Below are positions 26,001 through 60,624 of a stretch of 64,000 bases of DNA, one piece after another. The DNA is from Laetmonice hystrix. Lineage: Eukaryota. Every line of letters starts with the position of its first letter. Position 1 is the first letter of the stretch. A program made the position numbers and the translations under genes. The DNA is taken from the NCBI GenBank assembly GCA_965235115.1, contig OZ249436.1, positions 29,080,001-29,144,000 of the forward strand, given 5' to 3'. The notes under the pieces are model-generated. The model had not been told where the DNA came from. It made no database searches and saw only the letters and a program-made list of their open reading frames with translations.

Positions 26001-29000
26001 AGGTTGACGGAGATCTATTATCGTGAGTGACAGCTGATTAGTGACTAAAAATGATATTATAATACAGGCCTGATCTTAAGTAAAATTTGCGCAACCCCAA
26101 AATTGGCTTGCATAACCCGTAGTTCGGTTATATGGAATTTGTTTGCATAAATGAAAAGTTACGCAAATCAGTTACCTAGAATGACTCATAATGAATGTCT
26201 CCTGTGTGTCACAGTGTGTTTTAATATTATAGTTTGATATGCGGGACGACTCTGACAAGGTTCGGCCACACAAGTTCGTCATTTGTTGCATGTTGGGAGA
26301 AAAACGCGAAAAAATGGCTAAATTTGCAGGTGAACGGATTTTCGTTCCCGCCCCCTTTTTATTTTAAGTAAACGACAGGTGAATGAAACGATTGTTGGCA
26401 TCGTAAAATCAGGCCTGATAATAATGTGCTTGTTTATTTCCTTACCGTTTTCTTTGGCATGCGTTGGTCAAGAATGAAGAGACAGTTATTGGTGGCGACA
26501 AGATGGTAGAAAGGGTTGGAGTCATGGGCCCTGCTGACCATGATTCTTTCACAGGGTTGCAGTTGGGGACTCGGCAAAACAAACATTTCCTCTTTCCGTG
26601 GTTCTGCCTGCAGCCAATGCAAACACTACATCAGATAAACATATAGCCTACAAAAGCATCTTCAACTAACTCGGCAATACAAATAAACCATTGAATCTCT
26701 TTGGCCACTTAATAGTCTTGTCTGCAAATCAGGTTATAATGGCCATTGGTTTTTGTTGTTTGCATTCTCAAGTGAGGGAAATGTGTAGTTTCACCTGCCC
26801 TCTCTATGTAAAGAGTTTGCATATAGTGAGAGTTAGTCTGTTCTCTCTCTCTCTCTGACTGAGTGCTAGGCTCTCTTCAGCTCCCTTGCTGGCAATCACT
26901 TCTAGGCCACATTTTTATTGTTTGGTTTACAGGCCCGCCGACATGGGAAATTGCAAAAGTATAAAAATAATCAAACTGGAAAAATCCCTTTTTTTTTAAT
27001 TTCCGCCGAACTTCCCAATGTGCTAGTCAGAAGACACAGAAAAAAAAAAACATTTTTTTTTAAATCTGCCCACATCGGCTGGTATACATATCTGCATGTT
27101 AGACTTTACTTACTTTTACTTTTTACAAATTGTTAATATACCGTAACTATCATAAAAGTTGGAAAAAAAGTAAACCAGGAGGAACTTTATTTTTATTTCA
27201 TCATTTGTACTTTAGGTAACTTTGCAGGGTGCCCGTAAACCAAACAATAACAAGCTTGTGAAGCTTATAGCCCCCAACAAGAGCTATGGATTCTTGAAGA
27301 AACGATGCACGACTTCAGGATCTTTCAAGGTCAATAAAGGTCAAATAAATACATGTAGTGACAAATTAAACTTGGAGATGTGACCCACTGATATCGTTAT
27401 CGGCACCTGTTTTGGAGATACAGGCCATTGCACCATTGACTTTGACTGACCTTTCGAGGTTACTCAAATTCATGGAAAAGGAATGTTCATCTATAATTTC
27501 CTATCCATCTTCTATAACGTCTATTGATGGGATCTTCCTTGCAACCTTGAATGACCTTTGACCTTCACTTGACCTACACATGGCTGGACAGACGGCAAAT
27601 TAGAAGCCCCCATTGGGGCCTAACAAAAGTGTGGCCATACCTATTGTAACTCAAAATTCTAGTGCAGAAATTACTACCATTTGCTATTGCCGATATTTGG
27701 TTTCATCATTACAGATCTAGTCTAATATAATAATTTCATTCAATGCAAATTTTTCACTTACCCTGACATCCCACACTGCCACCCCAGTTCTGTCAGTAAC
27801 CATCACCTGCCTAGGATGGGCACTAAACTGGGCACTGCACCATTTCTCAGGGGTGACAAACCGATGATTTCTCAGCTTACCAAGCAAATTGGTCTCCTGC
27901 TCAATGTGCCATAACTGTACTCGACCTCTGCTATCTGCTATTAGGCATTCACCACATATGAAGGGACTGCAACCATAAAATACATCAGTAAACACATTTT
28001 GACAACAAAAAACTGTGCAGAGCAAGAAAGAGTATAGGAACCGAGTGAGCGATTTGTCGATTTACATCCTGTTGACAACTATCTTCATGGCAAGAAAATA
28101 TTTTCTTAAACTGATCAGTCCATATACAGTGTTTGCGTTAACACAGTTTTCCTACATATTTACGCATAATTATATTGAACAGTGATGCAAAAGCTCCAAT
28201 TTTAGATGGGTAGACTATATCTCAAGGTATATACATCAGGGATGAAAGTGGCCAGCTGTAAAATTTCCTGAAATTCTGACCGGGGGGGGGGGGGGGGGGG
28301 GCGGCGGGGGCCAATGTCCATAATTAATATTTGTTCATGCGCACATCCAAGGCTTACCCCCCCCCCCTTAAAAAAAGTCAGGCTAGGAACAGCAGACAAT
28401 CATGATCCGATAAGGCCTCCTAGCTATTATATATTATAGGGCCTAGCCCTCAGTATTTAGTCGCCACCCCCCCCCCACCCCCCCACCCCCCTCAACCCCC
28501 CACCCCTGCAAATTTGCTGGATAGACTCCATCACTCATCAGTCCATGCCCCTGTTCAAGGCTGTTGCTTGCCTGTCACTCAGACTCAGTCACAGTCAGTG
28601 TCAACCTCTGCCTGGCTCTGCCGTCTCTCTCCAACATTGGAATCCAGTCGGCTTTTAGCGTCCAAAATGCAACCGATTACGTTGTCAAACAGCTTCCATG
28701 TGTTAGACTGACCACACAGGCTGTCCATCAGTCTTGACCCTCAGCAGTCACGACCCTCAGCGGCTCTCAGCCAAGCAACACAGACTTCGCTGAGTCGAGT
28801 GGTTCAGCCCGTGTGTCCATGTGCCACTCATGTTGTTGTGAAAATTGTCACTTCCGGTCTTATCAGGACACCTGCACTGATCGACAAATGTAATGAAAAG
28901 TCCTGACAACCCCAAAACTTCAGTGAAAACCACTTACGTAATGCCACTATCCTCAAATTTATATGCAAGAACACATTATGAGAACTTACTGACATATATA

Positions 29001-37375: not shown

Positions 37376-37822
37376 TATCGTAAGGCCAATGTCATCCCTG
37401 ACATGCGTGTAAATTTCGTGTGCCGTGAAATATTTATCAAAACACCACCACGACGACCATGTCCACCCGCTTCATTTATTGCCTCCCGTAGTAGACTCTA
37501 CAGACACTAGTCCTTTCAAATAGATTATTACAAAATTCATGATATTACCCCATAGTTATTATAATCAGTAATTAATCAATTAATTTGCTTATCAATATAT
37601 ATACGACTGTTCCCAAAAATAACTGGCAGGTAGGTTGTGTGGCTGGAGAAAAAGTAGATACCGGTAGGCAGTAGTAGTAGGCAAACAGTTTCCGGTTATC
37701 GTGCGGTAGGATAGTATGAACTTGTCCATGAATGAATCACAGACGAGTGTCAGTTTTCTGCACAAAATGAGCATTTTCACCAACACAAGCGTCAGTAATG
37801 AATGCCTGGCATAGTTTAGAAA
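37376..37822. promoter_or_regulatory. Probable bidirectional promoter and 5' UTRs of TAF1C and ANAPC11
   Basis: A minus-strand GTAAGT donor at 37370-37375 (TAF1C UTR exon) lies about 450 bp from the plus-strand ANAPC11 ATG. Confidence 0.5.
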
Positions 37823-40800
37823 ATGAAAGTGAAGATCAAAGGTAACTGCTATAAATAATTAATTAAGTATTGGGGCATTACCCATTAGCCTAGGGCAGGT
37901 ATGGTTCGCAGGTATAACGTTAGTCATTCTAGATCCAGGTAGATCTAGGTAGGTAGATCTACCCACTTTTATTTTGTTTTAATAAAAGTTTTATTAATTC
38001 TACAATATGATCTAGCTAGTCAATCTAACGTTAACGTTAGAGCTTATCGTATCGTATCCAAGATCCTATCCTCGTATAGCTTAGATGTGGCCACCCTAAT
38101 AATATCACGGGTTTCAATTAATAAATTGTTTTACATGGCCGGCCGCCTCAATATTTTGGCGCCGCCTCGATTTTTTTTATATTTTATATTTTTCAAAAAG
38201 TCCGTTTTTTTCATCCCCAAAACCGTCTCCCACAGTTCTGTCAGGGTGTTACAGTTAAAGTGACCCTCAAGGTATAGAAGGGCTGTACAAAATGTTGAGA
38301 AATTAAAAGTATTTTTCCAGTATTGGTGATCTCTGCTGTCCTTCTTGTCGAGGAAAAATATAAAATATAAAATGCCCTACTCACCAACATTTCAGAAGTT
38401 GGAGTCATGTAAAACAATTTATTAATTTTAAGTGGCCTAACATGTAGTACCCTGGCCTAGGCTAGGGCTAGGGCCTAGGCTCCTAACTTCGCGCACCTAG
38501 GCTAAAGGCTATGATGCACTGCGCTCCCCGACCCGATTGGTGACAATCGGTTTGGCGCCCGTTCGGGCCGGGAGGTGATCGGTGCCGATCAGATATCAAA
38601 TTTTTTTGATATTGAATCGGGGGGGTCGATCGGGAGTGCTTCGAGCCGAATGGGTCCCGACTGCCTATGACCCACTGGCGCCGATCACATCCCGAATTTG
38701 TGCAATCGGGAAGTGATCGGCCCCAAATTTTGTCCAGTGCATCATAGCCTTAAGGGTAAGGCCTCTCTAAGGCTAAAGGCTATGACGGACTGGACCAAAT
38801 CGGGGCTGATCACGTTCTGATTGCCTGAATTCGGGACGAGATCAGGCGTCAGTGGGTCATAGGTAGTCGGGACACAACCGGCACGAAGCACTCCCGATCG
38901 CCCGCCGATTCAATGTCAAAAAAGTTTGATATCTGATCGCGCCGATCGCCTCCCGGTCCGAATGGGCGCCGAACAGTGGGCAGTGCGTCATAGCCTTAAG
39001 CCTTGTTTTGCTGCACAATCATGTCGTCATCAGGGCTCTCCAAAGTGGCGGCTGCTTGGTGCGCAGCACATCCAAATCTACGCACCAGAACTATCAACCC
39101 CAGCAAATAAGAAGCCAGGCGTACGAGTCGGGAGGGGGAGGGGGCAGCCCCCCCCCCCCCCCCCCAATTTGGGCAAAACAGTGGGGACAATTGAGGCAAA
39201 GCAACCAGAACAAAAATTGGACAGAGAAATTTTGAGCAAATCAACCCCTCTGCCCCCCTTAACCAAAGAGTCCCCACTCGCCCATTTTAGCAGAGCTCTA
39301 TTTTACAAGAAAGGGGATGAGAGTAGGCGGCAGAGGTGTTGGGAAACAGACGGCCAAGTATAATCTTTTCAAATTAAAGTCAAATCTGCTAAACTTTGCC
39401 CCAAAAAGGTACTTTCTCCGTCACGCTTACTCCTGGGAGATTAAATGCATGGTTTACAGTGCTTTGACTTTTATGGGTCACTGGGGGACCACCAAATCAA
39501 ATGCGTCACCTAGGCCTGGTTCCCAAATCAATCTGTCGCTCAGTTTTCTCCTTGTCGCATTTGCCTTGTTGTCACTCCAATATGGGACATAGTGACAAAT
39601 GGACAGCCCTGATCATGCCAGCATAAATTTTCGTATCGCACTCAACCAAGTGCCATACATGTTATGTATTTTTATAATATTTCGGAAAAACTGACTAATC
39701 ACGTTTCAGTACTGTTCTGCTCAACCAAATCATAAAGGTACTGTCTACTGCTATGGCAGCCGTAATCTATTACGAACCCGCTAGCGCTATGACAGCGACT
39801 GAGCATGTGCAAATTTATAACCGTTTTGGTTTACGGCGGCAGTAAATGTATGTCACCGGCAATGCAAAAGTAGCAGCAAGCTGCGGCTCAGTGGGGTAAT
39901 GGTAGCATGTTCGACTTCCAAATAGAGACCCGGGATCGATACTCGCTCTGCCCAGGATGTAACCTATGGGTTATAGTTAAGGTTAGGGTTAGTTATATTT
40001 GGTTTTAGGCCAAAGTGGGCTGTCAGACTATTGGGCTGTCAGAATAACAGACCTAGGGCTCCCCTACCGAAGGAAGTGAGCTGAAATCACACATGTGCAG
40101 AAACAGTGCCAGAAACAGAAACTCAAGAAAATGGCTTTCAAATTACGGCTGCTGTAACACTATCCAGGGCTCGAAAAAAACCCACGTCCGGTAGTCCGGG
40201 ACAACTAGAATATGTCTCTGGGCAAGTAAAATTTAAGGTTTGTGTAGTATCATGTCTTGGTTACTACTTGCCCGAAGGGCAAGTTCGGGCAAGTAAAACC
40301 GGTAGGTCTTTTTCGAGCCCTGCTATCCTGTGCCAATAATAAAATCCATATTGTGGGCAGATGGACCAATCAAAAAGCAGTATTTTTACTGATAAAGTAA
40401 AAGTGAAGCAAGATTGTATTTAAAAAGAAAAAAGAAATGCCACTTATGATAGTAAATTTGCTGCTGTCAAAATTCCGTATTGGTGATTATTGTATCAGAT
40501 ACTTTTTCTAAGACCCATTATCTGGATTCACTTTGTTTCATGTTTGGTGCTGTATTGCTGTTCAAGGGTAAGTTTTAAGTTTTACCTGCTGTTTGCCAGT
40601 TTAATCTCAGTAATACTGAAGATACAATTTTCTTTTTTCATAGAATGAACACGCACTGTCACATATTTCTAGTATGCGGTTGTATTGTGATACATTAAAT
40701 ATGTAAATATCAGGACCTGAAGTGCATCATTGCAACATTTCCCAGCATTTCCCGAGAATTGAAAGAATGCATTCATCATGAAATTAACACTAATATGGAG

Positions 40801-42763
40801 CTTTCTTTTATTGTATCAAGATGGACAGCAGTTGCAACATGGCGTTGGGTTGCAAATGATGACAACTGTGGCATATGTAGAATGCCTTTTGATGGATGTT
40901 GTCCCGACTGCAAACTGCCCGGAGATGACTGCCCACTAGGTAAAGTGCTGTGCTACAGATTTGATTCCTTGAATGGAAGCCAGTCGAGGTTATGTGACGG
41001 CGCATCGGCCGTCCATCTGTCTGAGTTTACGAGAGCTACATTATGGGGCTTCTTGTCACTACGACTTTACACTCTGGGGTTGTTTTCACATTGTGGGGTG
41101 AGCCCTACAGTGAAGATAAGGGAATCTGTAGGAAAAGACATTATAAGGCTTTCTAAGCAGTGTGGGAGTAAAGCCTCACAATGCACTTTGCCTATGACCG
41201 GAAACTGCATGTCCGTATGAAAAAATGTTTGTGGTGGGGTACTTAGGAGAGGTACATTATGGGGCTTTTTTGATATTGTGGGTTGAACCCCACAATGACA
41301 ACGTACCTAATTTCAGTCCCACAAGGTACGGACAGAATGTTTTGCACAATGTAGCTGGCATAGTAGCTCCCGCCCCCTGTGAACTTTTATGATACAGTCC
41401 TCCCTCGCTATAGCGCCCCCCGTTTTACTGCCACCCTCGCATATAACGCCAAAATGTATTTGCACAGAAATCCCAATGTATTATCCCCATAGGTATCGCC
41501 AACCCTCGCTGCCAGGCCTCTTCCATGTCCAAATATATGAAAACCTATTAGATTCGCCCTCGTTATACCACCAGCATGTAGCGTCAATGCATATTATTAG
41601 GTCATTACGTGTTACGCAATGAACTTGGTGAGGCAGCAGTGTGGGCGGGAAGCAGGGTTTCAACACGTTTGAGGTCAGTTCAGTTCATAATCATGTCTGA
41701 GCATGGTCGGAGCGAATAATACCTAAACTTTAAAGCCAAAAACGGACTTTCTGATCAATTTTCTTTTATTAGACTTACAGAGATGAAGTAAACTTCGTTT
41801 GTAATGCACAAGGTGTACGCGGCAGGGTTGTAATTCAGGCTGGACCAAATTGACCAATTTTTTTTCAACAGCTGCCAAGCCCATGGCCATTAAAAAATGT
41901 GGGGAACGGTGGTTGGCTGGGTGTACTTAAGGCTCAAGATTGGCGTCCATGCACTTGTGTACATGCCTCTGTATATACCTTGCTATAACACCATCCTCGC
42001 TATACCGCCAACGGTGCCTATGTCCCAAGGCTGGCGCTATAGCAAGGGAGGACTGTAGTTACATTAACATGTCGTGGGGGGGGGGGGAGGACACCCCCCC
42101 CATTATTCAGCTACTTCCCCCCCCAAAAGATTTCCAGCGGGAAATATTTTGCATTACTCCCCCCCCCCCTCCAAACTCACACCATCCCCCCCCCCCACAA
42201 AAAGTCGAAAATCTCCAGGAAACCCTGAATCAGCAAAATCGGGTCAGTGTATGTAGGTCAACTAGCAACTGATTTGTGGAGCTTCTTGATTTCTTGATTG
42301 TGCTTAGGACTTGGTTTCGGCACTTTAACAAATAACGATGAATATCAATGAAATTTTTAACATGGGTTCGTATTGCCAATATCTCAGATCTCAATCTTTC
42401 AAATCCATGTGGCCTAAGTAGGTCAACTGCCCTCTCATTGGTCATGCTTGGGATTGGTTTTCATTTGGGTTCATGTGGCCAATATCTCAGACAAGTTCGA
42501 TTATCACATAACATCAGGGAAATGTTACCAATATCAAGGTTAAGCCAGTTCAGCCTCAGTCCCATGTCAGGCTTGTTTTGTTATTCTTTTACCAAACTAA
42601 TTTTCAAAATTGTGTTCATTATAATGATGTAATTCCTTCCATTTCAGTATGGGGACAGTGTTCACACTGTTTCCACATCCACTGTATCGTCAAGTGGCTG
42701 AACTCACAACAGGTGCACCAGCTCTGCCCCATGTGTCGACAGGAATGGAAGTTCAAGGAGTGA
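37823..42763 (+). CDS. ANAPC11: Anaphase-promoting complex subunit 11 (RING-H2); exons 37823-37841, 40567 (inferred 1-nt exon), 40821-40939, 42648-42763
   Basis: MKVKIK-G-WTAVATWRWVANDDNCGICRMPFDGCCPDCKLPGDDCPLVWGQCSHCFHIHCIVKWLNSQQVHQLCPMCRQEWKFKE*. Exon lengths 19+1+119+116 = 255 nt give 84 aa, close to recalled human APC11. Confidence 0.95.
38506..38996. mobile_element. Two adjacent, mutually inverted copies of a Harbinger-type MITE (38506-38750 and 38777-38996)
   Basis: Each copy is TAA|AGGCTATGA...TCATAGCCT|TAA; the interiors are reverse complements of each other. Confidence 0.8.
39885..39954 (+). pseudogene. Degenerate tRNA-Gly(TCC)-like sequence (SINE head or tRNA pseudogene)
   Basis: A-box-like TGGGGTAATGG, loop CTTCCAA, B-box-like GGATCGATAC; stems mispair. 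Followed by GGTTAGGGTTAG and duplicated GGGCTGTCAGA, suggesting a repeat context. Confidence 0.55.
40567..40567 (+). other. ANAPC11: Inferred single-nucleotide coding exon (G) of ANAPC11
   Basis: The upstream donor (37842) is phase 1 and the downstream acceptor (40820) is phase 2, so one base is missing. Context: U-rich tract ...tgtattgctgttcaag|G|gtaagt with a consensus donor. Confidence 0.75.
41395..42055. mobile_element. Tc1/mariner (pogo/Tigger-like) MITE
   Basis: TA|CAGTCCTCCCTCGCTATAGCGCC...GGCGCTATAGCAAGGGAGGACTG|TA. Confidence 0.8.
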
Positions 42764-44118
42764 AACCCTGTGCATTGGCAAAGAAAAGCAGTTTGACTTT
42801 GGGAGCACTTTGTAATGGCAGTTGGTTAGTCAAGTCTGAATTAAGATTTGCACTATAAGTGTATGTGACAGAAAGAATCATCAAAATGTAAAAATTGCAG
42901 CAAATCTTTCTTCAGACTTCAGGAAACATGGTCATGAAGCTCATATGTGCCGACCATCACAGAACATATAGTGCCATTACAAAGTGTGCCCTGTGAGTAC
43001 AACCAATTGGTGGAGATGGATAGAAGTCATACTTAAGGACTGAGGACCTATGGACCTAAGAACTGAGGGATATTGAAAACAAAGAGAACATTTATAAACC
43101 AATAACTTTTTAGTCTCTTAGAACTGAAGAATCAAGTGTGAAAGGAACAGAAAGGTCCAAGTTACCGAAAGTAGAAACTTATAACTGATTATACAGGCAG
43201 CTACGGATTATAGTGTTTATTACTGTTATTCAGGAAAACGTGTTTATTTGCTTGGCCTATGAAGGGATGCCCATTTGTTTCCATCCCATACGTACTTGGA
43301 ATTTGAGGTGTAAAAAAGAATTAATAAAGCATTCCACCCATTTAATTCTTATGCTTCATGTATTTGTTGAAATACTGGCCATATATTTCATGTCTTATAC
43401 CTCTCCCACTGATTTTGAATCCCCCTCAAGCCAGATGTGAGGTTTGTCAGTTACGTGTACTTGCTCTAAAGGCCCGGTCCCACTGCACTTACGGATGCAA
43501 AGAGTATGTAAAACCTAACAAAATCTTGCCATCCGTTGGAAAACGCTATGCATCTGTTGTGTACCCATTGCATACGTGTTTCATACGCTGTATCCATCGA
43601 GCATCCGTCCACTGTGATTTCATCCGCGCAAAAAGTTTTGAGCTGCACAAAACCTTTAAGGCCCGGTCCCACTGGCCAATGGACACAAAACGTATGCATA
43701 AAGGACACAGCGGACGAGCAAAATTTCGGGGGTGGCTCCATCCGTTTTCATCCGCTGCAGAAATGGACAAAATTGGCGAAAATTGGCGAAAACAGAATGG
43801 AAAAGAACGGACGTGGGTAGTATGTAGCGGGGATGTTAAACGGATGTTCATCGGAAGCCTAGTGGATGAAAGCGGATGGAAGTGGATGACAGCTCCGAAG
43901 GGGCTACCGGGGATAATTGTGTATATCACATGCAAACCGTTCACTGCGCATGCGGGGGGTATGAATTGCCTCCGCTCCGTGGATATAGGGATGCAGCACG
44001 CACGCAGTCAGCATAAAGCGGAAAGACGTGCTGGCGGCTACATCGATACATCTGTACTACATCTCGTTATTGAAGAAGGCTACATTGATACATCTCTACT
44101 ACATCTTGTATCAACACC

Positions 44119-45644
44119 ATGCGTCAGTCAGGCAAGAAAAGGAAGTCCGTGCCTACTCGTTCAAGCCCTGGCAAGGTGAAGAAGGCCAGAACCAGCACCC
44201 CACCCCCTGACACTGACTCTGATGGTGAAGCTGCTGCTGCTGCTGTGGTGGACCAGCCCCAAGGCCCTCAAGCCCCTCAAAGCTCTGCTGAAGGCCGTGA
44301 TGTTCAAGCCCCTGAAGGCCCTGATGCTCAAGCCCCTGAAGGCCCTGAACAAGCTCCTAAAGGCCCTGATGCTCAAGCTCATGAAGGCCCTGCTGAAGCC
44401 CCTGAAGGCCCTGAACAAGTTCCAGCCAGAGGGAGGAAGAGGCAAGGGAAGAAGAAGGGAGAGAGGAAGCAGTACACCGTTTCCGAGGAGCATTAGGATG
44501 ATTTGCTGGAATGGCTGAGGGAGAACGAGTACCTCTGGAGAAAGGGCCACAGACTGTATCGGGACAACAAGAAGAAGCAGGCAGCTTGGAGAGACAAGGC
44601 AGAGAGCCTGGGGTACACTGCAGAAGTAGGGGCTACTCCTTGGATGGTGGAAGCACATGCACTCCTGGTATGGGAAACTACACCTCAAGAAATCAGGGCA
44701 GGCCGCCGTCAAGCTCACCGACCGGGAGAAGTACGTCATGGCCAAGTGCAGTTTCCTGGAGGGTGAGACCCGCCACCGAGGAGCAGCCCCTCTGAGACCC
44801 CTCTCCCTCAGACAGCCCACAGACAGCCAGGCATCTTCAAGCCAGGAGCCACCTACCCTGTCCAGAGGGCCCCACAGCAGAGACCCCCTCGACAGCTACA
44901 CTCCCCATGGTGCCGAACTTGGAGGATCCCATGGAGGATGACGCCCTGCTGTCACAAATGGAGGAACAAGCGGCAGCCACCAGAGGCCAACCCACCCCCA
45001 CCTCCACCACCAGCTCCAGAGGACGCAGGCAGAGAGGCAGACTGGAGGGCCAGTACGACAGTGTGCTGTTGGAGATCAGGGACACAATGAAGACCAGCAC
45101 AGAACTTCTCTCTCAGCTGGTCGACTTGGACAGAGCATCCTCGGCCCGGAAGCCCTTCATCACCTACGTGAGCCAGACCCTGAGGGACCTGCCCGAGGCC
45201 AAGTACCAGGTGATGAAGCAGAAGATGACAGCACTTCTCCACAACCCTCAAGGCCCAGCTGAAGCTCGTCCTACCCAGTCCAGGTCTGCTCCTCCACCCC
45301 AGGCGACGTCACAGCCCTTCCCCGGCTTTCAACAGCACCTCACCTACCAAGGCTACGACTACCAGGACTTCCCACAGCAGAAGCAGAACTTCCCAGTCCA
45401 GGCCCAGGTTCATTGGACGCCACAGACGCCACTCCTCACCCAGCTGCAGACCAGACAGCCCCAGCACACTCATCCCAACCCTTCCTCTACCCCAGAGCCA
45501 AGGCCGTCAACGGACAATCTCTCAGCAGTATTGGGCTTGACATCTCAAGTCCTTGATGAAGGGTCTCTCAAACTCACGGGACTGAGTCAGCTCTCGGATA
45601 CCAACCTTGGCATCCTGGCCACACCACCACCTGCTGTACCCTAG
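44119..45644 (+). pseudogene. Harbinger Myb/SANT-like (MADF) DNA-binding protein with an in-frame stop and frameshifts
   Basis: LLEWLRENEYLWRKGHRLYRDNKKKQAAWRDKAESLG is MADF-like and follows a TAG at 44494-44496. N-terminal APEGP minisatellite at about 44260-44420. C-terminal PFITYVSQTLRDLP..YQVMKQKM resembles a BESS motif. Confidence 0.75.
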
Positions 45645-47104
45645 AGGCCAAGCACCCCAATGCCGCGTCAGACCAGCACACAAGCCACAGCCACAGTCAC
45701 TGCCTAACGCCTCACAGCTGAGACCATGGACATGACTCAGAGTGACTCAGAATAGTTTGAGAGACTGAGTTGTGATTGTGAACACTTGTGAGCAGCATTG
45801 TTTACTTATAAAAATGTTTTGTTTACTTAATAAAGTGTTGGTAAAGACTTTGAAAAAAATGGTTAAAACTTTGCATTTCTTTTTTAACTTAATAAAGTGT
45901 TGGTAAAAACTTTGAAACACTTGTTGTGAACACTTGTGAGCAGCATGTTTTTACTTATAAAAATGTTTAGTTTACTTAATAAAGTGTTGGTAAAAACTTT
46001 GAAAAAATGGTTAAACTATGTTGATGGACCAAGAAATGCCCGACTATGTTGATGGACCAAGAAATGCCCAACTTGGTTGCACTGGTAGTCCAAAATGCAA
46101 AGTCCCCTATCCCCATATAACTCCCTTTTCCCCGTATAAAATTTAAAGTCCCTCTCTCCTTTTGAAAGAGAAGTTCAAACACCCATCTACCATATTTAAC
46201 CCTGCCTAAAGGCCCTTTTTCAAACATATAAAATGTCCAAGGTGTTTTCCCATGCCCAACAATGTTGGTGGACCATAAAATGCAAAGAATGTTTCCATTA
46301 ATAGTCACCTGTCTCTGAGGTCAGTTATAAATATAATCATTGTTCCAAGATTAAATTTAATACAGTGACATTCATATTTAGAAGGAGACAATAACTTTGA
46401 TTTAACAATCAATTTACAAGAAATAAATTACATGGCCCATGTTTGGAGTCACATTTGGAATAAACGTTAACGCTAACGCTAATTTGAGTTAAACTTAACG
46501 TTACACACCCAAATTTAGAAAAAAAATCCCTGGTATTGTTATGTAGCCAAAAATTAAAATGGCTTTTTTGTTACCTTATTTATTAAAATAATTGAGTCAT
46601 ATACTATCTGTGAATAATTGGGCACAGAGAGTTCTGACTGACAGTGCAACCATAACAGCATGCTATGGTCCACCAACATAGTCTGGCCTGGAATCAGTTG
46701 GCCACAGTTTGGTCTTTATTTTTTATTGATGGGCAAAAAGGGCCCTTTCCACAAGGGATGTTGCACTTTATTATTATCTGGGAAAAAGGACTTTTGGACT
46801 TGGGGAAAGTTGTGGGATAGGGAAACCTCCGGACCTACGCTTGCAGTGCAACCATACTGGGACTGTATGTTTCACCATCCCAGCTGCCACACATATGAAC
46901 CTTTATTATCAATAACAATTTATTCAGTAATCAACACATTTTAAATCAAACAAAGCTGTTTATTAATGCCCTATTCAGTGTAGGACCCCACAACATACAT
47001 TTAATAACAATAAACAGCTACAAGTATACAACAGCATAGTAATGCAGTGTTCTTATGGCACAATCTCATCAGTCTTATGCAACAGTCTCAAGGAAGCATC
47101 CATT

Positions 47105-48343
47105 CTAATCATCTATCATCCTGTCTTGCCACTCCACTGATCCAGCTGGGCAGTTGCACCAGTGTCTCAGGAGGTTGCGCTTCTTCTTCCCTTCACGTGA
47201 AGCTCTGTTGGGGCCTTGTACATCCACAGTGTCCATAAGGTTACGTCCTTGCCTCCATTCACCAGGCCTCATGTCCCCATTCCCTTGTTGACGGTCGACA
47301 AGTCTGTTCTGCAACACTGGGAAGCGGGTGCGCATGAGATTGTGCAGGATGCAGCAAGCTTCCACGATGCTCCTCACAGTCTCTGGGTCATGCTGCATGG
47401 TGGTGAGAAGTATCTGAAACCTGTTGGCCAGGATGCCGAAGGCGTTCTCCACCACCCGTCTTGCCCTGGACAGCCTGTAGTTGAAGATCCTCTCTTCACG
47501 GGTGAGGGTGAACTGTACGGCTTCATGAGATAGGTTCTGAGGGAGAACGCGTCATCACCAATGATGAAGTAGGGCACATCTTGTGTGTCATTGGGAAGGG
47601 GGTCTGAACCTGGAAAGCCCATGATGAGGTTGCGTTCAAGTCCATCCATGAGGTCACTTGCGTTGTATATCTGGGCATCTGAAGCTGACCCGTTGCGTGA
47701 AGCATCGATGTAGATGAACTTGTAATCAGCATCAACCATGGCAAAGAGGATGATACTGAAGAAGCCCTTGTAGTAATAAGTGGACCCTGAGTTGGCTGGA
47801 GCTTTGTAGGCCACGTGCTTCCCATCTATGGCTCCAACGGTGTGGGGAAAGTTCCACCTCTGATACCAATCTTCTGCAAGTTGTCTCCAGCCTTGTTCAG
47901 TGGTGGGGCCTGAGGAGCTCGTCCACGTATTCTTCAACGATGGCCTCTACCACTTCTCTAACGACTTTGCTGATGCTGTTGTGTGGCACCCTCCATGCAT
48001 GTTTCTGTATGTGGTTCCAGAGGCCAGGTGCCACCTTCAGTCCAGGGTCCAGGTTGGGACGGAAGTTGGTGCTAGGCTTGGTCAACCTGGGTCTCAGACG
48101 CTCTACAAGTTCGTCAAACATGGCTGGTGGCATCCTCATGAAGTGACGGAATGCACGAGGGTCTTCATTCCTCAGCTCCACCATCAACTGGTCATACAGT
48201 CCAAACTCCATTCTTCTCACGATCCATCCTCGGACCCACACAGCTCTTGGACGTCCCCTTCTTCTCCTTCTTCTCCTTCTGTCTAAAACTTGATACAGTC
48301 TGAACAGGTTGTGGTTCTGCTGTTGAATGAGTGCAGCTATCAT
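47105..48343 (-). pseudogene. Harbinger transposase (HARBI1-like, DDE_Tnp_4), frameshifted
   Basis: Three overlapping ORF pieces: [96 protein letters not shown]. Confidence 0.9.
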
Positions 48344-50100
48344 ATGGAGGAGAACAATTGATGATGTTGATGATGTTGAAGACCAAGACCAAGGGTGATG
48401 AGGTCTCTACAGCATGGCTGCTTGACTTATACTGAGATCCAGATGATTTTCTCTCCCTTTTTATACAAAATATCGGTTATCCGCTAGGTGTCCTTCTACA
48501 TACTGTAGACATACTCCAGACATCCTAAATATACGATACATCCCAGATACAAGCGCTTTGTCCATTTTGAATACTTTATACGAGATGCATACGCTTACAT
48601 CCTTTCTATTTCCGTGCTACTAACGATGTATAGACGTTCCATGTACCTTATCTTTCCTCCCTCTTTCCGTTTTCAGCTGCAGTGGATGCGAGTTGCGAGG
48701 ATGCCCAGATGATGCAGAGAGGATACAGCAGACTTTTAACGGATGATAACGGACATAGAACGTTTGTTGCTTGTATATGTCGCGGATTTACATCGTACAC
48801 GGCGGAAAGTTCATCCGTTCTAAAAATTTTGTGCAGCTCAAAACTTTTTGCGCGGATGAAATCACAGTGGACGGATGCTCGATGGATAGAGCGTATGAAA
48901 CACGTATGCAATGGGTACACAACGGATGCATAGCGTTTTCCAACGGATGGCAAGATCTTTTCACGTTTTACATACTCTTTGCATCCGTAAGTGCAGTGGG
49001 ACCGGGCCTAGAACGAATGAACTTTCCGCTTAGTCAGATTCAGTATATATAAAGAATAAGAAACCATTGGCCGGATGCAAGGACATAGGGCAATTCCATG
49101 AGTAACGGACTGACATTTCAGAGAAAAATGATGTAGTTAGTTTCGAGAATAACCCAATCTGTGGATTTATGCGTATTTTCAGTTCCCAGGAAGTCAGAAT
49201 TTTCTAGCCTTTTCTCATTTTTGGAGACTGGCCTTTATTTCGCTGGTCAATCACAGAAGAATTCCATTAAACATGACTACCAAACGTACCCAACCTTAAA
49301 TCTAGGCTAGATATTAAGTTAAGCCATTCTTGGGATTAACTTCACAAAATGTTCTTGCATATGGCCACATGCGAGGCCACATGTGACCAGAGATCTGAGA
49401 CCCGCGACACCGGGACTACAAAAAATATTACGGACGACGACGATGATTTGAGGTTGGTGGGCTACTGTATTTTGGACATAAGAAGTATACATAACTCGTT
49501 TTAGCCATCTAACAGTCCACAAGTGTCACCATGTAGCAGTGCATACATAAGTCAGTGGGCAACATAATATGTGACCAGGGGCGGATCTAGGGTCTATATT
49601 CAGGGGGGGTCCGAGGGGGGTCCAGCATAAAAAGGGCAAATCGAGGGGGGGTCCGTTGTAAAACCAAAAGGCATTTTGGTTATAAAAAATTAAATTTGGC
49701 AAATTTGAGGGGGGGGGGGGGGTCCGGACGTCGCCGACACCCCCCCTGGATCCGCCACTGAATGTGGTGGAAGGGATCAACATTCCAGAGGAATAATTTT
49801 TCTAGAATAGCATTATACTGTCTTTTTCCATCATAAATAATAAATATAGAGTACAAAATGAATATGAACAAAATAATCATGAAAATGATTAGTACACTGA
49901 TAAAAATAGGGACAACCACTTTGATTTATAGTCAAGTCAACCACCACTTTAGAGAGTGGTTGTCCTTTCGTAACTGTTACATTAAAACTAGAAATATCCC
50001 ATGTCGGTACGTACCATACACACCAGGATAAATCCAGTCTTTCTTAACAATATGCATACAAAGAGCATGCATGCAACTGTCAGTAATTTTGTATAATGAC

Positions 50101-50955
50101 TTAATAACGGCCAGATCTACCACTTCTATAGTATCTCTCTCTGCTTCTGCTGCGGCTTCTTCGACGATTGTCTGTTCTTCTTTGCGAAGGGGAATAATCC
50201 CTCTGGCTTCGAGGTTTATATTGGTTCTGGCCTTTATCAATACTTCGGGTTGGACTTCTATATCGCCCACGTTTATCTGTCTCGTCTTCGGTGGTCCTAC
50301 CTTTATAATTTTCACAAAAGTTTCTTCTGTCCCTACTGCTGTTTCTTTCATATCTTACAGTAGGCCTATCCTGTTCTCTATCATCAGTGCGCCTAGAGTA
50401 ATTATCATCAGCAGGTCCTGACTGCCAAGTCCTTGTGCCAGTTTCCATAAGAATTGGTTTTCGAAATGGTCTGTCACGTCCACCAAATCTCAACTGGCCC
50501 GATTCTTTCTTTCCACCTAGTCCACCACCAAATCTCCTTGGGACCCATCCTTCTAGTATACGTTCCTGCTCGAAGTCCACAAAAATTTCCTGGCCATCAA
50601 CATCAATTCTGTAGGTTTCCCTGTGTGCCCTTATTGCACTTTTCCTTTCTTCATATTCAACAAAAGCATAACACTTGGAGAACCCAGTCACCATATCACG
50701 GACAAGTCTTACTCTTTTGAAGTCACCATATTTAGAAAAAGTGTCTCTAATTGTTTCTTCTGTTGTGTTTGGGTGGAGTCTAGACACAAAAAGTGTGCAC
50801 TGTGGATTGCCTACAACAGCTTTGTTTGGACGATACTTGGCACAAAGTGCCCGTATTATAGCACGGTCGTGAGCATCCTTGTCTGTGCCATCAATACTGC
50901 CAGCTTTTAATGGGGAATACCGTACTGCTATTGGAGACCATCCTTCAAATGACAT
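50101..50955 (-). CDS. SNRNP35: U11/U12 small nuclear ribonucleoprotein 35 kDa protein (RRM plus RS-like tail), single coding exon
   Basis: WSPIAVRYSPLKAGSIDGTD...HDRAIIRAL; RRM TLFVSRL...RVRLVRDMVTGFSKCYAFVEY; GWVPRRFGGGLGGKKESGQLRFGGRDRPFRKP; RSRSRSR tail. Acceptor ttttgtag at 50971, first ATG at 50955, so a 5' UTR exon lies further upstream. Confidence 0.95.
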   Translation of the reverse strand: MSFEGWSPIAVRYSPLKAGSIDGTDKDAHDRAIIRALCAKYRPNKAVVGNPQCTLFVSRLHPNTTEETIRDTFSKYGDFKRVRLVRDMVTGFSKCYAFVEYEERKSAIRAHRETYRIDVDGQEIFVDFEQERILEGWVPRRFGGGLGGKKESGQLRFGGRDRPFRKPILMETGTRTWQSGPADDNYSRRTDDREQDRPTVRYERNSSRDRRNFCENYKGRTTEDETDKRGRYRSPTRSIDKGQNQYKPRSQRDYSPSQRRTDNRRRSRSRSRERYYRSGRSGRY

Positions 50956-51068
50956 CTTTCTTGAATCCACCTACAAAACAGTAAAAGGTAAATATGAGAT
51001 CAAGCAAAAGTTCCTGAGCAAAGTTAAATTTTCATGAACTACATGTATTTACTGATAATGATAGGTAC

Positions 51069-55421: not shown

Positions 55422-58400
55422 AGGGGCTCTGAAGTCCCATTCTATCAGCTACTTACCGATTATAATGATCATGTAATGACTGATCGAGTCATTTATCCTA
55501 CCCCCCGAAACCGCAGTTTGTAGAAATCGTATTTAATACATTTTCGATTATTTGTTTACCGTAAGCCATATCAAGGTCTGACAACAGTGAATTGATTTAT
55601 GGCCACCGGATGTGACGTAGTTTGGGTTCCGGTTTGCTCCGCCATCAGTGACCTTGAATGTTGTGTGATGTACATGCTGATCAACTGTCAACAAAATGCC
55701 CTACTGTGCAGCATTTAATTGTAATTCCCGGAAATATCCAGCAGCAGGTTTCAGCAACCAACCCCGAATAACGTTCTTCCAGTTCCCCAGAGACAACAAC
55801 CTGAGGAAACGATGGATTGCGGCGCTAAAACGAGATCAATTTTCGCCATCACGCAACAGCCGTGTGTGTGAAAAACATTTCAGACCAGATGATTTCGAGC
55901 CAGATGTAAGGGGTCAGTTAGGAAATTACAAAGTGTCAACTCTTCAACTTAAACCTGATGCTGTTCCGATGGGACCCACCATGACGGCGGCTGAAATTGA
56001 AAAGGCTAACGCACGATATGCACGGAGACAGGCCAGGACGGATAAACAGGTCAGTCATTTTCGTCTCCCACATCGTACTAGTAGTAGTAGTAGCTCGTTG
56101 TTTATGTCATGATACGGACAGGTGTTTGCTGGTTTTATGGGCATAAATATAGATACTATATTTAGGGCAGTACTTGAAGTCTAGGATGTGCTCAGCTGAA
56201 AGATTAGTCATTTTTCATTTTGTATTTTTACCGTTCAGCATACCTGTCAATGCCCGCTTATTGACGGGAGACAGAGCCGGGTGTCGACCGCTATGGCCCG
56301 GCCTGTATTTGGGTGATCTCAACTGGCGGCAGGCCAGCCTACCTCTGCTTGCCGTGATCTAAATACTGCACTTGCCCAAGTACACTGCTGTCCTCCTGAC
56401 CCCCCCCCCCCCCCCCCCGGGGATGGGTGGGGTGGGGGTATCAAGAGAACTCAGGCCAAATACGAACTCGGCCTTGGTGACACCTCCGCCCAGTTCGAGT
56501 TCTCCCTCAACTTTCAACTTCATCAGGATGGTGGGAAAATGTTTTCAGGTCGGCCTACTTATGATCAGTTGTTCTTAAAACTATTCATGACTACAGTACT
56601 TGGATAAATACCTACCAGCAGCAGAAATAAGGCACCATTCAGGACTAATGACACAAAAAGTATTTATGTGGAACATTTAATCTTGGTTTTCAGAATCTAT
56701 ATTCGGGATATATGTTCGGGCTTTTGGTAATAAAGCAAGCCAAGGAAGAAAACAGAAACATTGCAATGCTCTGTTAATTAAAAAATGCTCTGTTTGAAAA
56801 AAAAAATCATCAGAGCGGCCAGGCAGGTGTGGACCAAATACTGTACCTATAACAACATTTTAGGCCTGGTATATAAAAATATGAACTTAATTGCATGAAC
56901 ACTACCATTATATTTCATTTTCTCTGAGTCTAATTAATTAATTAATAACATAATAACTTAAACAACTTTTTAATTGTAGTCAGGACCAGGGTCAATTTTC
57001 TAATCAGGGACATTAATATACACTACTGGATGTTACCCTAAGAGTTAACACATCAAAGAGATGATATCGCCACCCTCGGAGGTCAGCCCCAGGTGAATCC
57101 ATTCACAATGAGGTGTGAACAACAAGGACTTCACACCTTCACCCCCTGATCACTGAGACAATTAGGAGCATTAAAGGGATACTGTAGCCAAAACTTCTAT
57201 CAAGGCAGCAGAAATATCTACCCATTTGGATAAAAATGATCCCAACCTCCTGAAAATCAAATGGTTCAAACGTTATGCACAGAAATCTAACAGTTTTCAA
57301 GCACATGGGGGAAGCCATCAGTTGAGGCCCTTCTCATAATGCTTCACACCTGCTGTCATAATGTGGTTCTTGTTGAAAATTTAACAATTTAGACGTGCTC
57401 ATTATGAGCTTTATCAAGTCATTTTAATCAGATTACTTAATGTATCTATCTAATTATAACATACCTTCAACTCTGTTCCTTTGTGATATTGGTTGTATGT
57501 TTATACAAGATTTTTCAAAATTTAAGTCATAAATCAAAACTGGATTACCATTCAGTACTTGTGGCTCACAAATCAGTTTGTCCAATTATTGCAAATGCTC
57601 TACTTGAATGATTCAAGAAAGAACTTTCTGATTCTCCCAAATGTAACTTTGGATTAGTGGTATCTAAGGATATGCCATTGTATTTTTGTTAGCTTCTATA
57701 AGTAGCTCAGTATTATGGCATTTACCCAATTAAAATATTTCAAAACATCTCGCTGAAAATTAACGTTCTGACTATATATAGACCTATAAAGCGAAAAGTT
57801 GCCCTCCATTTAATTTAAACATGTATGCTTAAAGTCTTAGGATACTTTCATGTCTCTTAAGTTGGTTTTATGTGAGAATTAAACCACATAAAAAACTTTA
57901 TTTATTTTTCCCTTAACCCTTAAAATGAATAAAAACTGTGAAAACAATTTTCCACCCAAAATCAGTGTAGAATCATGACCCACATAATCAACAGAATAAA
58001 ATTGACATTACAGATACTCAAGGGGATTTAAAAATGAAAAATGTAAAACCAAGCTAAGGACCTTGAGAGTTTAGTGATCTTCTGGAACTGCAGGCCTCGA
58101 AAAAAAATCTACCAACTTCACTTGCCCTTCGGGCAAGTACTAGCCAAGATATACTTGGCCAACATTATTTTTCACTTTCCCAGATTCAGAGGCAATGTGA
58201 TCGCCTCTGAATCTGTGTGGAAGGTTAACTTAGGCCTATTCCTTTCTATATTTGTTTCTCTCGTCTGATCGGACAACAAAAATTAAATTTTACTCGTCCA
58301 AAGACATATTTTTTGTCATCTCGGATGATCGGACATGGGTTTTTTCAAGGCCTGCTGTGGACACATGAAATCATGTTGTTGTTTTTTTGTTTTGTTTTTT

Positions 58401-60624
58401 GTTTTGTTTTTTTTAAATCAGGGCACAAAGGTCCAGCAGGGCTGACAGATTTTTTTGTCAGTCTACCCTGTTGGCTGACTAAAAAGTAAGGCTTGAACCC
58501 TGTACTTATCACTGTCTGTTTTGAAACTTACACGTTTGTCGATCTTTCCAGGTGGTGAGGAATCTTCTAAAACGTGTGGAGTGTGAAACCAGATTGGAAA
58601 CTCGGTCAAACAGTCAAGCACAAGATCCAGATGACAGCTGCCCAATGCCAGTCAGTCCAAGCCTACCCGACTTACCTTGCCCTCCCTCTCCAGAAGACGA
58701 TGAGCCTCTTGACCAGTGTTGCAGATGCCAAAAAGTTGAAAAATGTGATATTGGTATACAAACAGATATCCCAAAGATTCCATCTGTGGATATTGGAGTT
58801 CAAGCTGACCATGGCTTTTTTGAGTTACCGGTACCAACACTTCCAAATTCAAGCACGCCTAACAGTAAGAGACCATCACGTAGGGATGTTATACCATATT
58901 CCCCCATCAGACAATGCATGGATTCAACAAATGACCTCCTCACTGCAGATTTCTCCTCACCTTCTGACTGTGAACTTACAGTGTCTGACGCGGATGAGAC
59001 ATGGCCGTACAGCGAGGGACATGATTCAGAGGCAGGTACCTCAGGTGCATGTACTGACTCAATGGAAATATCTGGTGAAGAACATGATAATGAATGCAAG
59101 GATGTAGGACATGATTCCACTTACGTTCAGGAGGATGACAGTGATGTGTCATGTGAACAAGACTTAAATAAGTCATTGTTGATGCCACACAGTGAAAGGA
59201 AGTTCATTGTCTTTGAGTCTTGTCTGGATCAACTGTTCACAACCTGTCGACTTTGTGGAGGACCTGTTGCAGAAACTGACAAGTTCTTGCAGGGATGCAA
59301 TCTGAAGGTCAAGGTCACATGCATAAATCACTGCTTCTACACCTGGGCAGCACAGCCTTCCCTTAGAGGAATGGCAGCTGGAAACCTGTTAACAGCTGCA
59401 GCAACATTATTTACAGGCATGACTTTTGAACGTTACCAGCAGTGGTCCAAAGTGTTGAACCTCGTGTTTATGTCAGAGAGGACATTTCATCAGATATCAA
59501 AGGACTACCTCCAACCTGTAGTCCAAGAATCTTGGCTTCAACATGAACGTTCTCTACATGCAAGTATTCTCAAAGAAGAGTCCCCACTACAGTTGGCTGG
59601 GGATGGAAGGTGTGACTCTCCTGGCCACAATGCAAAGTACGGCACATATACTCTCCTGGACAGTCACACAAACAAGATTGTTGCATTTGAGCTGATCCAG
59701 AAGTCAGAGGTAAAGAACAGCAGCTGCATGGAAAAGGAAGGCCTTGTACGATGTCTGGGGAGGCTTCAGGATGCAGGCATAAGAGTTACACAGCTAGCCA
59801 CAGACCGCCACCCTCAGATACAGTGCTATATGAAGAGCACATCAATAGAGCACCAATTTGACATGTGGCACGTTTCAAAATCCATAGTGAAGAAGTTGAC
59901 TGCCAAAGCGAAAGGGAAGCACTGTGAGGATCTTCGCCCTTGGATTCGATCCATCACCAACCATCTATGGTGGGCAAGCGCAAGCTGCAATGGGGACGTG
60001 GAAGACTTGCGTGACAAGTGGACCTCAGTGTTACATCATATAACCAACACTCATGAGTGGGGGTTCTCTTTGAAGTTCACCAAGTGTGCCCATGCACCCT
60101 TATCTGAAGAAGACGCATCCTCCACTGCTTGGCTAGTCCCTGGCACACCAGCTCACAGTGCTTTGCAGGAAGTGGTTACGGAAAAAAAGCTTTTGAAAGA
60201 CTTGGCACTTTTGACTAATTTCACACATACAGGAGAACTGGAAGTGTATCACTCTTTGCTGACTAAGTACTGTCCAAAACGCCAGCACTTCTTCTATGAA
60301 AGCATGCTCACCAGAACCATGCTAGCTGCCTTGGACCACAACCACAATGTAGGTCGGAAGCAGGCCAAAACAGCAACTGAAGAGGAACGATACAAATACG
60401 AGTGGTCCAAGGTGTCGCAAAACTGGGTGGTGAAGCCCATCTATTGTGGGAAGGACTACTCATACTTGGATAGGATGATGGCAAGAGTGGTTGAAATTAG
60501 AGTGAAGAAAATTCAGTTGCCTGCAGTCACTAGACCATCTGGAGCACCTGTTAACATTGCCCCAGTACCACGTCCGAACAAGGAGGACCTTCTTCAGAGA
60601 CACCGCAGCAGATTTTCTGTATAG
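55422..60624 (+). mobile_element. Kolobok-like DNA transposon (putative left end plus transposase; right end not found in window)
   Basis: TTAA (55418-55421) then AGGGGCTCTGAAGTCCC, about 270 bp upstream of the THAP ATG. No matching inverted repeat seen downstream. Confidence 0.55.
55696..60624 (+). CDS. THAP-domain DDE transposase, Kolobok-type; exons 55696-56049 and 58552-60624 (about 808 aa, uninterrupted)
   Basis: Exon 1 is a THAP C2CH zinc finger (MPYCAAFNC...FFQFP...RKRW...RVCEKHF...LKPDAVP). Phase-0 intron CAG|gtcagt...ttccag|GTG. Exon 2 has GDGRCDSPGHNAKYGTY, LATDRH, HQFDMWH, WIRSITNHLWW and TGELEVYHS..KYCPKR, which I recall as Kolobok transposase motifs. A left-end-like TTAA|AGGGG lies at 55418-55426. 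Confidence 0.85.

Follow-up and report, generated by a model that had tools for sequence, protein, structure and literature searches.

A probable one-base exon in codon 7 of the APC11 gene of Laetmonice hystrix

The one-base exon of Arabidopsis APC11 (A333) was proven by Guo and Liu through substitution and deletion; the exon base is A, the upstream intron is about 0.33 kb with its branch point about 44 nucleotides (nt) before the exon, and the forward primer was 19 nt long with C at its end (PMC4674806), which is the length of the first coding exon described below. According to the available part of Yu et al., this exon occurs in most land plants and was dated to early plants, with no word on animals, and in plant microexons the upstream intron tends to stay longer, the downstream one being removed first more commonly (PMC8831610). 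The same part reports a 1-nt microexon in plant VPS55, and a one-nucleotide exon was reported for Fusarium CYP621A (PMC12940212, available part). Furthermore, the placozoan mitochondrial cox1 gene possesses a single-base exon required for a conserved residue (PMC5436844, available part). In the present study, 64,000 nt of Laetmonice hystrix DNA (GenBank assembly GCA_965235115.1, contig OZ249436.1, positions 29,080,001 to 29,144,000, forward strand; this whole stretch is called the window) were analysed, and the base G40567 was very probably an exon by itself, constitutive and one base long, of the only APC11 gene. In the literature searched, with most subscription journals outside its scope, no nuclear animal 1-nt exon and no APC11 intron pair outside plants was found, in agreement with the sequence-only reading (an earlier model's note made from the letters of the window), which knew of no animal description. 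Within that literature, a nuclear one-base exon joined by the spliceosome would here be seen in an animal for the first time.

The placozoan cox1 introns are self-splicing group I introns and do not depend on the spliceosome. At the ratchet points of recursive splicing, zero bases are left and the upstream part is removed first. At 40567, one coding base was retained between AG and GT, and in corals (see below) the downstream intron appears to be removed first, the reverse of the recursive order; what is alike is an adjoining acceptor and donor inside a long sequence, used stepwise (PMC4674806, discussion). The plant APC11 exon was much closer. It lies in the same gene, is constitutive and frame-essential, supplies the middle base of a codon after a 19-nt exon 1 and is missed by annotation, as proposed here, and its set-back branch point (about 44 nt) and longer-lived upstream intron are also similar. 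It differs in its plant host, its base (A there, G here) and the length of its upstream intron (about 0.33 kb there, 2.7 kb here), and mutation of its base was shown to change the cDNA in Arabidopsis (PMC4674806), whereas the exon in our study is known from contigs and sequence comparison. In the available parts of their sources, CYP621A and VPS55 show a phase-1/phase-2 mismatch bridged by AG-G-GT, with a conserved GTRAGT donor in VPS55, but they are unrelated genes with short introns, restricted to one genus or to land plants. The cox1 exon, from the part of its source at hand, is likewise an animal one-base exon needed for a conserved residue, but in a mitochondrial gene. The neural microexons dependent on SRRM3/4 resemble this exon in that a strong donor matters, UGC lies between tract and AG, and an AG-exclusion zone is scored; unlike it, they are included alternatively and in certain tissues only, and their length is usually a multiple of three (bioRxiv 10.1101/2024.09.17.613571, available part), whereas G40567 would be required everywhere, its skipping being predicted to frameshift the only APC11 copy. 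The animal host, the long introns, the conserved upstream architecture and the probably much older date are new here, and one-base spliceosomal exons themselves are known in plants and fungi.

The product of the gene was identified as APC11 by matches to APC11 chains in PDB (E 1e-19), with Pfam PF12861 on the matches and an 84-residue RING-H2 model; Trp-8 of the window protein aligned with residue 8 of human APC11 in PDB. The closest APC11 proteins were from a gastropod (0.99) and a cephalopod (0.97), the protein being too conserved to resolve phylum. APC11 was single-copy in the 627-Mb, 35-contig assembly, and a second match of exon 4 elsewhere was weak (48%). With G40567 included, the coding sequence was 19 + 1 + 119 + 116 = 255 nt for 84 residues, and a frameshifted product of 45 residues was obtained when it was left out. 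The sequence-only reading had proposed a 1-nt exon in codon 7 with this coding length; its description of the sequence and its positions for the ATG (37823), the G (40567) and exon 3 (40821) were exact, and the proposal is supported by a spliced contig and by comparative loci. The coordinates of the features are given in Table 1.

Table 1. Features of the APC11 locus in the Laetmonice hystrix window (positions of the 64,000-nt stretch)
Feature	Position	Strand	Remarks
Exon 1	37741-37841	+	Extent covered by the spliced 903-nt X4 contig; the contig end is not equated with the transcription start
Exon 1, coding part	37823-37841	+	19 nt; ATG at 37823; 6 codons and first base of codon 7; phase 1
Intron 1	37842-40566	+	2725 nt, GT..AG, phase 1; repeat-filled, including inverted-repeat elements; high summed depth in DNA-type runs
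AG-free zone	40513-40564	+	52 nt; pyrimidine tract set back from the AG, pentamers resembling branch points at 40527 and 40537, two TGC near AG; putative function
One-base exon G (probable)	40567	+	Middle base of codon 7 (Gly); AG 40565-40566 before, GTAAGT 40568-40573 after
Intron 2	40568-40820	+	253 nt, consensus donor GTAAGT, AG acceptor, phase 2
Exon 3	40821-40939	+	119 nt; phase-2 start with the last base of codon 7, then residues 8-46 and the first base of codon 47
Intron 3	40940-42647	+	1708 nt, GT..AG, phase 1; position common to plant locus L078 and unplaced L072
Exon 4	42648-43329	+	Coding part 42648-42763 (116 nt, to stop); 3' untranslated region; AATAAA at 43323
Weaker rival site AG|G|GTAAGG	38755	+	Between two repeat copies; same mRNA would result; not favoured

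Four sequencing runs of one sample (X1-X4) were all examined as contigs. X1-X3 were DNA-type; no run was recorded as RNA, and X4 was treated as RNA-like solely for its spliced joints. The 903-nt contig of X4, equal in length to the four-exon model, lay on the locus in three pieces with two joints, both of which were found 0 times in X1-X3. One joint corresponded to intron 3 (GT..AG, 1708 nt). The other, 37841 to 40820, was reported as GT..AA with one ambiguous base, and joined exon 1, exactly one extra G and exon 3 in frame; as had been foreseen, spliced mRNA was unable to place the G. This contig excluded another first coding exon, a longer micro-exon and an acceptor at 40828, each of which the sequence-only reading had named as evidence against itself. 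A processed pseudogene was also excluded, the joints being absent from the DNA-type runs and the gene having one copy. A one-base assembly or allele error at either junction, for which nothing speaks besides the ambiguity of the G, is extremely improbable: contigs of X1-X3 were gapless over 37825-38030 or 37700-37854, and over 40483-41418, so within the reach of contigs there is no 1-bp assembly error, another refuting outcome that the earlier note had listed, and the phase mismatch recurred in 16/16 related loci. A 224-nt contig of X4 spanned 40605-40826 in intron 2, and the unique bins 37891-38081, 40374-40564 and 40947-41328 were uncovered; an uncovered stretch proves nothing, and therefore the cover of X4 gives no splicing order for this organism. 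At 42702, the spliced X4 contig had G, in contrast to the A of the window and of each of the three DNA-type runs (Asn65 to Ser), which might be a second allele or A-to-I editing.

When the 2979-nt sequence between exons 1 and 3 was dinucleotide-shuffled 200 times, the motif AG-N-GTRAGT appeared in 5% of the trials, and the whole 64-kb window held two copies on the + strand and two on the - strand. By chance the motif is only moderately improbable; the weight of evidence lies in the comparison with related loci. Metagenome contigs were scanned and gave 238 relatives, and the analysis was performed on the best 80. Among these, a phase-2 acceptor before residue 8 was found in 41, the phase-1 form in 20 and no intron at codon 7 in 18, with one unclear. 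Exon 1 was also present in 16 of the 41 phase-2 loci (a spurious exon-1 match in L063 was removed before counting), and GT directly followed base 19 in all 16, which is the phase-1/phase-2 mismatch of the window. Between exons 1 and 3, AG-N-GTRAGT occurred in 14 of 17 loci, window included, with a shuffle frequency of 0-0.10 per locus; it occurred in 0/16 intron-3 sequences (17.9 kb), 0/17 antisense strands and 1/11 single-intron loci. Such a cross-species alignment for a phase-1/phase-2 pair with an internal AG-N-GT had been suggested as a check, and its outcome agreed with the suggestion. The 17 loci are not independent; they comprise seven animal lineages (the window, L002, L004, bivalve-like L006, stony corals, octocoral-like L040 and a group of seven related loci), one plant (L078) and one unplaced eukaryote (L072), and the perfect site was present in six of the seven animal lineages. 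Exon 1 was missing from the remaining 25 phase-2 loci; a candidate site was seen in 12 of these, nine had at most 710 upstream bases and four had nothing. The comparison supports a range for the one-base exon that takes in stony corals, octocoral-like, bivalve-like and three further bilaterian-like lineages, and also sea urchins by the signature of their gene models. The earlier suggestion that some animals share it thus held, with a wider range than was implied.

The reported GT..AA junction might also mean a single intron of 2978 nt, ending non-canonically (GT..AA or TA..AG), that lends the G, the site at 40567 having arisen by chance, as it did in 5% of shuffles. This is highly improbable, for the internal site recurs in 6/7 animal lineages against 0/16 control introns, and a separate non-canonical junction would have to be assumed for each lineage. 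Moreover, the base is A in corals and in plants, and neither splice site could lend an A; slippage therefore cannot supply the base. A real 1-nt exon at another G between exons 1 and 3 was judged very unlikely to the same degree. Twelve AG-G-GT/GC sites are available there and all would give the same mRNA, the likeliest being 38755 with its GTAAGG donor. That site, however, lies between two repeat copies in multi-copy DNA and is hence younger than the conserved layout, and 40567 alone combined a complete GTRAGT donor with the AG-free zone and with the motifs that lie upstream of the site in other lineages.

In corals, the one-base exon is A. The stony-coral locus L028 was equal to L031 minus exactly the 533-nt downstream intron, with intron 1 retained (330/330 identical), and L023 related to L026 in the same way, being additionally without intron 3. 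L028 as a single-intron gene was ruled out by its exact match to L031. L023 and L028 are read most simply as partly spliced RNA from which the downstream intron has gone first. The N-terminus of the public Orbicella model was the translation of the L028 form (50/50), and the wrong N-termini of Pocillopora, Oculina and Acropora models all ended in Glu-Trp, as in an L028-type form. In octocoral-like L040, residue 7 is predicted from the one-base A to be Lys, and it would be Arg if either splice site had slipped by one base; P0319, an intact protein of 84 residues with an exon-3 peptide identical to that of L040, had Lys. The sequence-only reading had supposed sequential splicing much like recursive splicing. 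The corals support the sequence of steps, with the downstream intron first, and the likeness to recursive splicing is a mere analogy.

The acceptor before the micro-exon was unusual in its architecture. The best pyrimidine run stopped about 21 nt upstream of the AG at 40565-40566, within the 52-nt AG-free zone; the U-rich tract described earlier was thus present but not adjacent to the acceptor. The pyrimidine fraction at -26 to -50 was 0.77 before the micro-exon, compared with 0.57 before exon 3 and 0.43 before exon 4, and it was higher before the micro-exon than before exon 3 in all nine animal loci; this interval was set post hoc, after the alignment had been viewed, and the tract played no part in picking seven of the nine sites. 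Furthermore, the AG-free zone was 52-123 nt before the micro-exon and 10-79 nt in comparison acceptors. TGC near the AG was inconsistent (6/9 loci vs 4/9 controls).

An acceptor AG and a donor one base apart overlap in the footprints of U1 and U2AF. The pairing of U1 spans donor positions -3 to +6 (bioRxiv 10.1101/2024.09.17.613571, available part); the U1 footprint would cover the acceptor AG, so that both sites are presumably not engaged simultaneously. We propose that the introns of 2725 and 253 nt, both of the ordinary GT-AG spliceosomal kind and separated within codon 7 by a single base, would be excised sequentially. The strong donor, together with a pyrimidine tract and branch point 25-50 nt upstream in the AG-free zone, may define a 'virtual' exon of workable length. 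If intron 2 is taken out first, the base would be fused to exon 3 and an ordinary acceptor would remain; the opposite order would also yield the right product. The corals would provide a precedent for this step, the donor behind the single base being used while intron 1 is still present. The exon is retained probably because skipping frameshifts an essential gene, and it could disappear only where intron 2 was lost exactly, as in insect-type loci, or where both introns were.

Several observations weigh against a one-base exon at 40567 or against parts of the evidence for it. The spliced contig fits a GT..AA or a TA..AG junction equally well and does not place the origin of the G, no partly spliced contig across base 40567 was found among the X1-X4 contigs of this organism, and all four runs come from one sample of one study, which is possibly the source of the assembly. 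That base 40567 itself serves as the exon in Laetmonice hystrix would accordingly follow from comparison with other loci. There, the single-intron locus L080 bears AG-N-GTRAGT without need for it (the 1/11 above), and the perfect donor is absent in three of the 17 loci, in which the weaker donors GTAAGA (L006), GTACTT (L072) and GTACTA (L078) lie at a plausible site. L034, L035, L051 and L063, with 1.4-4.8 kb of upstream DNA, have neither exon 1 nor a site, which is unexplained. L040 has two perfect candidates, L040:555 and L040:769, both A and 214 nt apart; its displaced pyrimidine tract is at the second. For the nine-locus pyrimidine comparison, p = 0.004 is optimistic, given the post hoc interval, two related loci among the nine, L007 being without exon 1 and the L040 site being partly picked by its tract. 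L023 and L028 might represent copies in the genome from which intron 2 has disappeared, not RNA intermediates, L040 and P0319 are not necessarily one species, and a fully spliced stony-coral sequence with Gln7 was not found among the stored proteins.

The same layout was found in a plant locus. In L078, exon 1 was 19 nt long, Trp-8 was preceded by a phase-2 acceptor, intron 3 was placed as in the window, and the candidate one-base exon was A, in an A-rich context resembling Arabidopsis; Gln was at residue 7 in 12 of 13 plant-type intact proteins. This layout and the 19-nt Arabidopsis primer bear out the earlier idea of an exon shared with plants at the same codon, and the match in codon and phases supports the animal exon as the counterpart of the plant one. 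L072, with introns of 35-42 nt, had introns at all three positions of the window. This locus can also be read with a donor GTATCCTT that lies 4 nt inside intron 1, in which case only one intron would be left and the protein would be longer by one residue. In the window, a donor at this distance past exon 1 was rejected, there being no GT. Insect-type loci had intron 1 only and other loci had lost both codon-7 introns, as presumably has human ANAPC11; intron 2 alone was seen in none of the 16 loci.

The three positions common to the window and L078 (19/20, 20/21 and 139/140 of the coding sequence) favour inheritance, and the introns there were probably passed to plants and animals from a common ancestor. 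It is rather unlikely, with some weight nonetheless, that the second intron was gained independently in plants, animals and other groups, for instance by repeated one-base sliding beside an ancient intron with both sites kept; this would concern the ancestry and not the exon itself. In the available part of the source, plant-animal common positions are mostly ancestral, but parallel gain is possible for up to 20% of them, which counts against inheritance, and one-base sliding is real but rare (PMC3488318); here, three positions are common to the window, L078 and L072. Dating to early plants would agree with independent gain (PMC8831610, available part), but the exon was found in both cnidarians and bilaterians, and the shifted-frame signature described below extends to a charophyte alga and a lycophyte. 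Several lineages have intron 1 only or neither, yet intron loss prevails in most lineages (PMC3488318, available part). The base varies (G or A), but such differences would be ordinary codon changes at residue 7.

Taken as one joint reading, which we favour with moderate confidence, the one-base exon would predate the split of plants from animals and fungi and would have been kept for more than 1 billion years in cnidarians, molluscs, echinoderms, plants, some protists and fungi. It would rely on a common architecture (strong donor, tract and branch point 25-50 nt back, AG-free zone) that copes with sites one base apart beside multi-kb introns, its differential loss would be a living model of apparent one-base intron sliding, and plant intron 1 may be of the U12 class. 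The origin of the plant APC11 exon would then shift from early plants to deep eukaryote history.

Concerning the plant intron, L078:699-706 starts intron 1 with GTATCCTT, which we take to be the minor-spliceosome donor consensus, and a branch-like heptamer precedes the candidate one-base exon by about 45 nt. Wrong models of Gossypium, Juglans and Melastoma show Arg/Ser-Ile-Leu/Phe after residue 6, as read-through of a GTATCCTT donor would give. All animal intron-1 donors were of the major type, and no paper linking APC11 to a U12-type intron was found in the literature searched.

The one-base exon would also account for a cluster of wrong public APC11 models. Among 288 stored proteins with a readable N-terminus, exon 1 was joined to exon 3 in a shifted frame in 16, as would be expected of a predictor that lacks one base; they included two Lytechinus species (sea urchins), Pocillopora damicornis, the alga Closterium and flowering plants. 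That annotation would easily miss the exon had been predicted, and this was the case; the signature extended to a charophyte alga and a lycophyte. Among the named models retrieved, a sample biased in that odd models are likelier to be cluster representatives, an intact N-terminus was found in 1/17 anthozoan, 5/15 mollusc, 0/4 echinoderm/hemichordate, 33/42 insect and 18/18 vertebrate models. P0129 (Acropora digitifera) and P0032 (Glandiceps) had 85 residues with two residues in place of codon 7, as if three bases had been added by the predictor to bridge the gap.

Some further features of the locus were noted. Three upstream ATGs lie in the covered 5' region (37767-37815); that at 37798, which is out of frame when the mRNA is spliced normally, would open the whole RING domain upon skipping of the one-base exon. 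An in-frame ATG at 40795 in intron 2, nine codons before Trp-8, is a likely start of a wrong gene model or of intron-2-retaining transcripts. Intron 1 holds two related inverted-repeat elements of about 240 bp at 38499-39004, in opposite arrangement with common terminal repeats, and further hairpin elements at 38116-38427 and 39741-40322.

Among the other loci of the survey, L075, L079 and L081 were intronless, 3'-truncated APC11 copies akin to L004, with one codon at position 7, and are probably processed pseudogenes. The scans of viral and prokaryote contigs gave one and two loci, respectively; L084 was dismissed as a chance match. L085 was a eukaryotic APC11 in a contig of a bacterial genome record, without codon-7 introns and with intron 3 kept, and is evidently a contamination of that record.

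Elsewhere in the window, a TAF1C exon (27720-28061, -) lies upstream of APC11 on the opposite strand, and a Harbinger-like element (43400-48400) lies just 3' of the gene, with a DDE_Tnp_4 frame at 47377-47946 (-) and low-complexity frames on the + strand. The other frames were an RRM at 50104-50970 (-), a THAP at 55681-56109 (+) and a 699-codon frame at 58525-60624 (+) with no match in Pfam.

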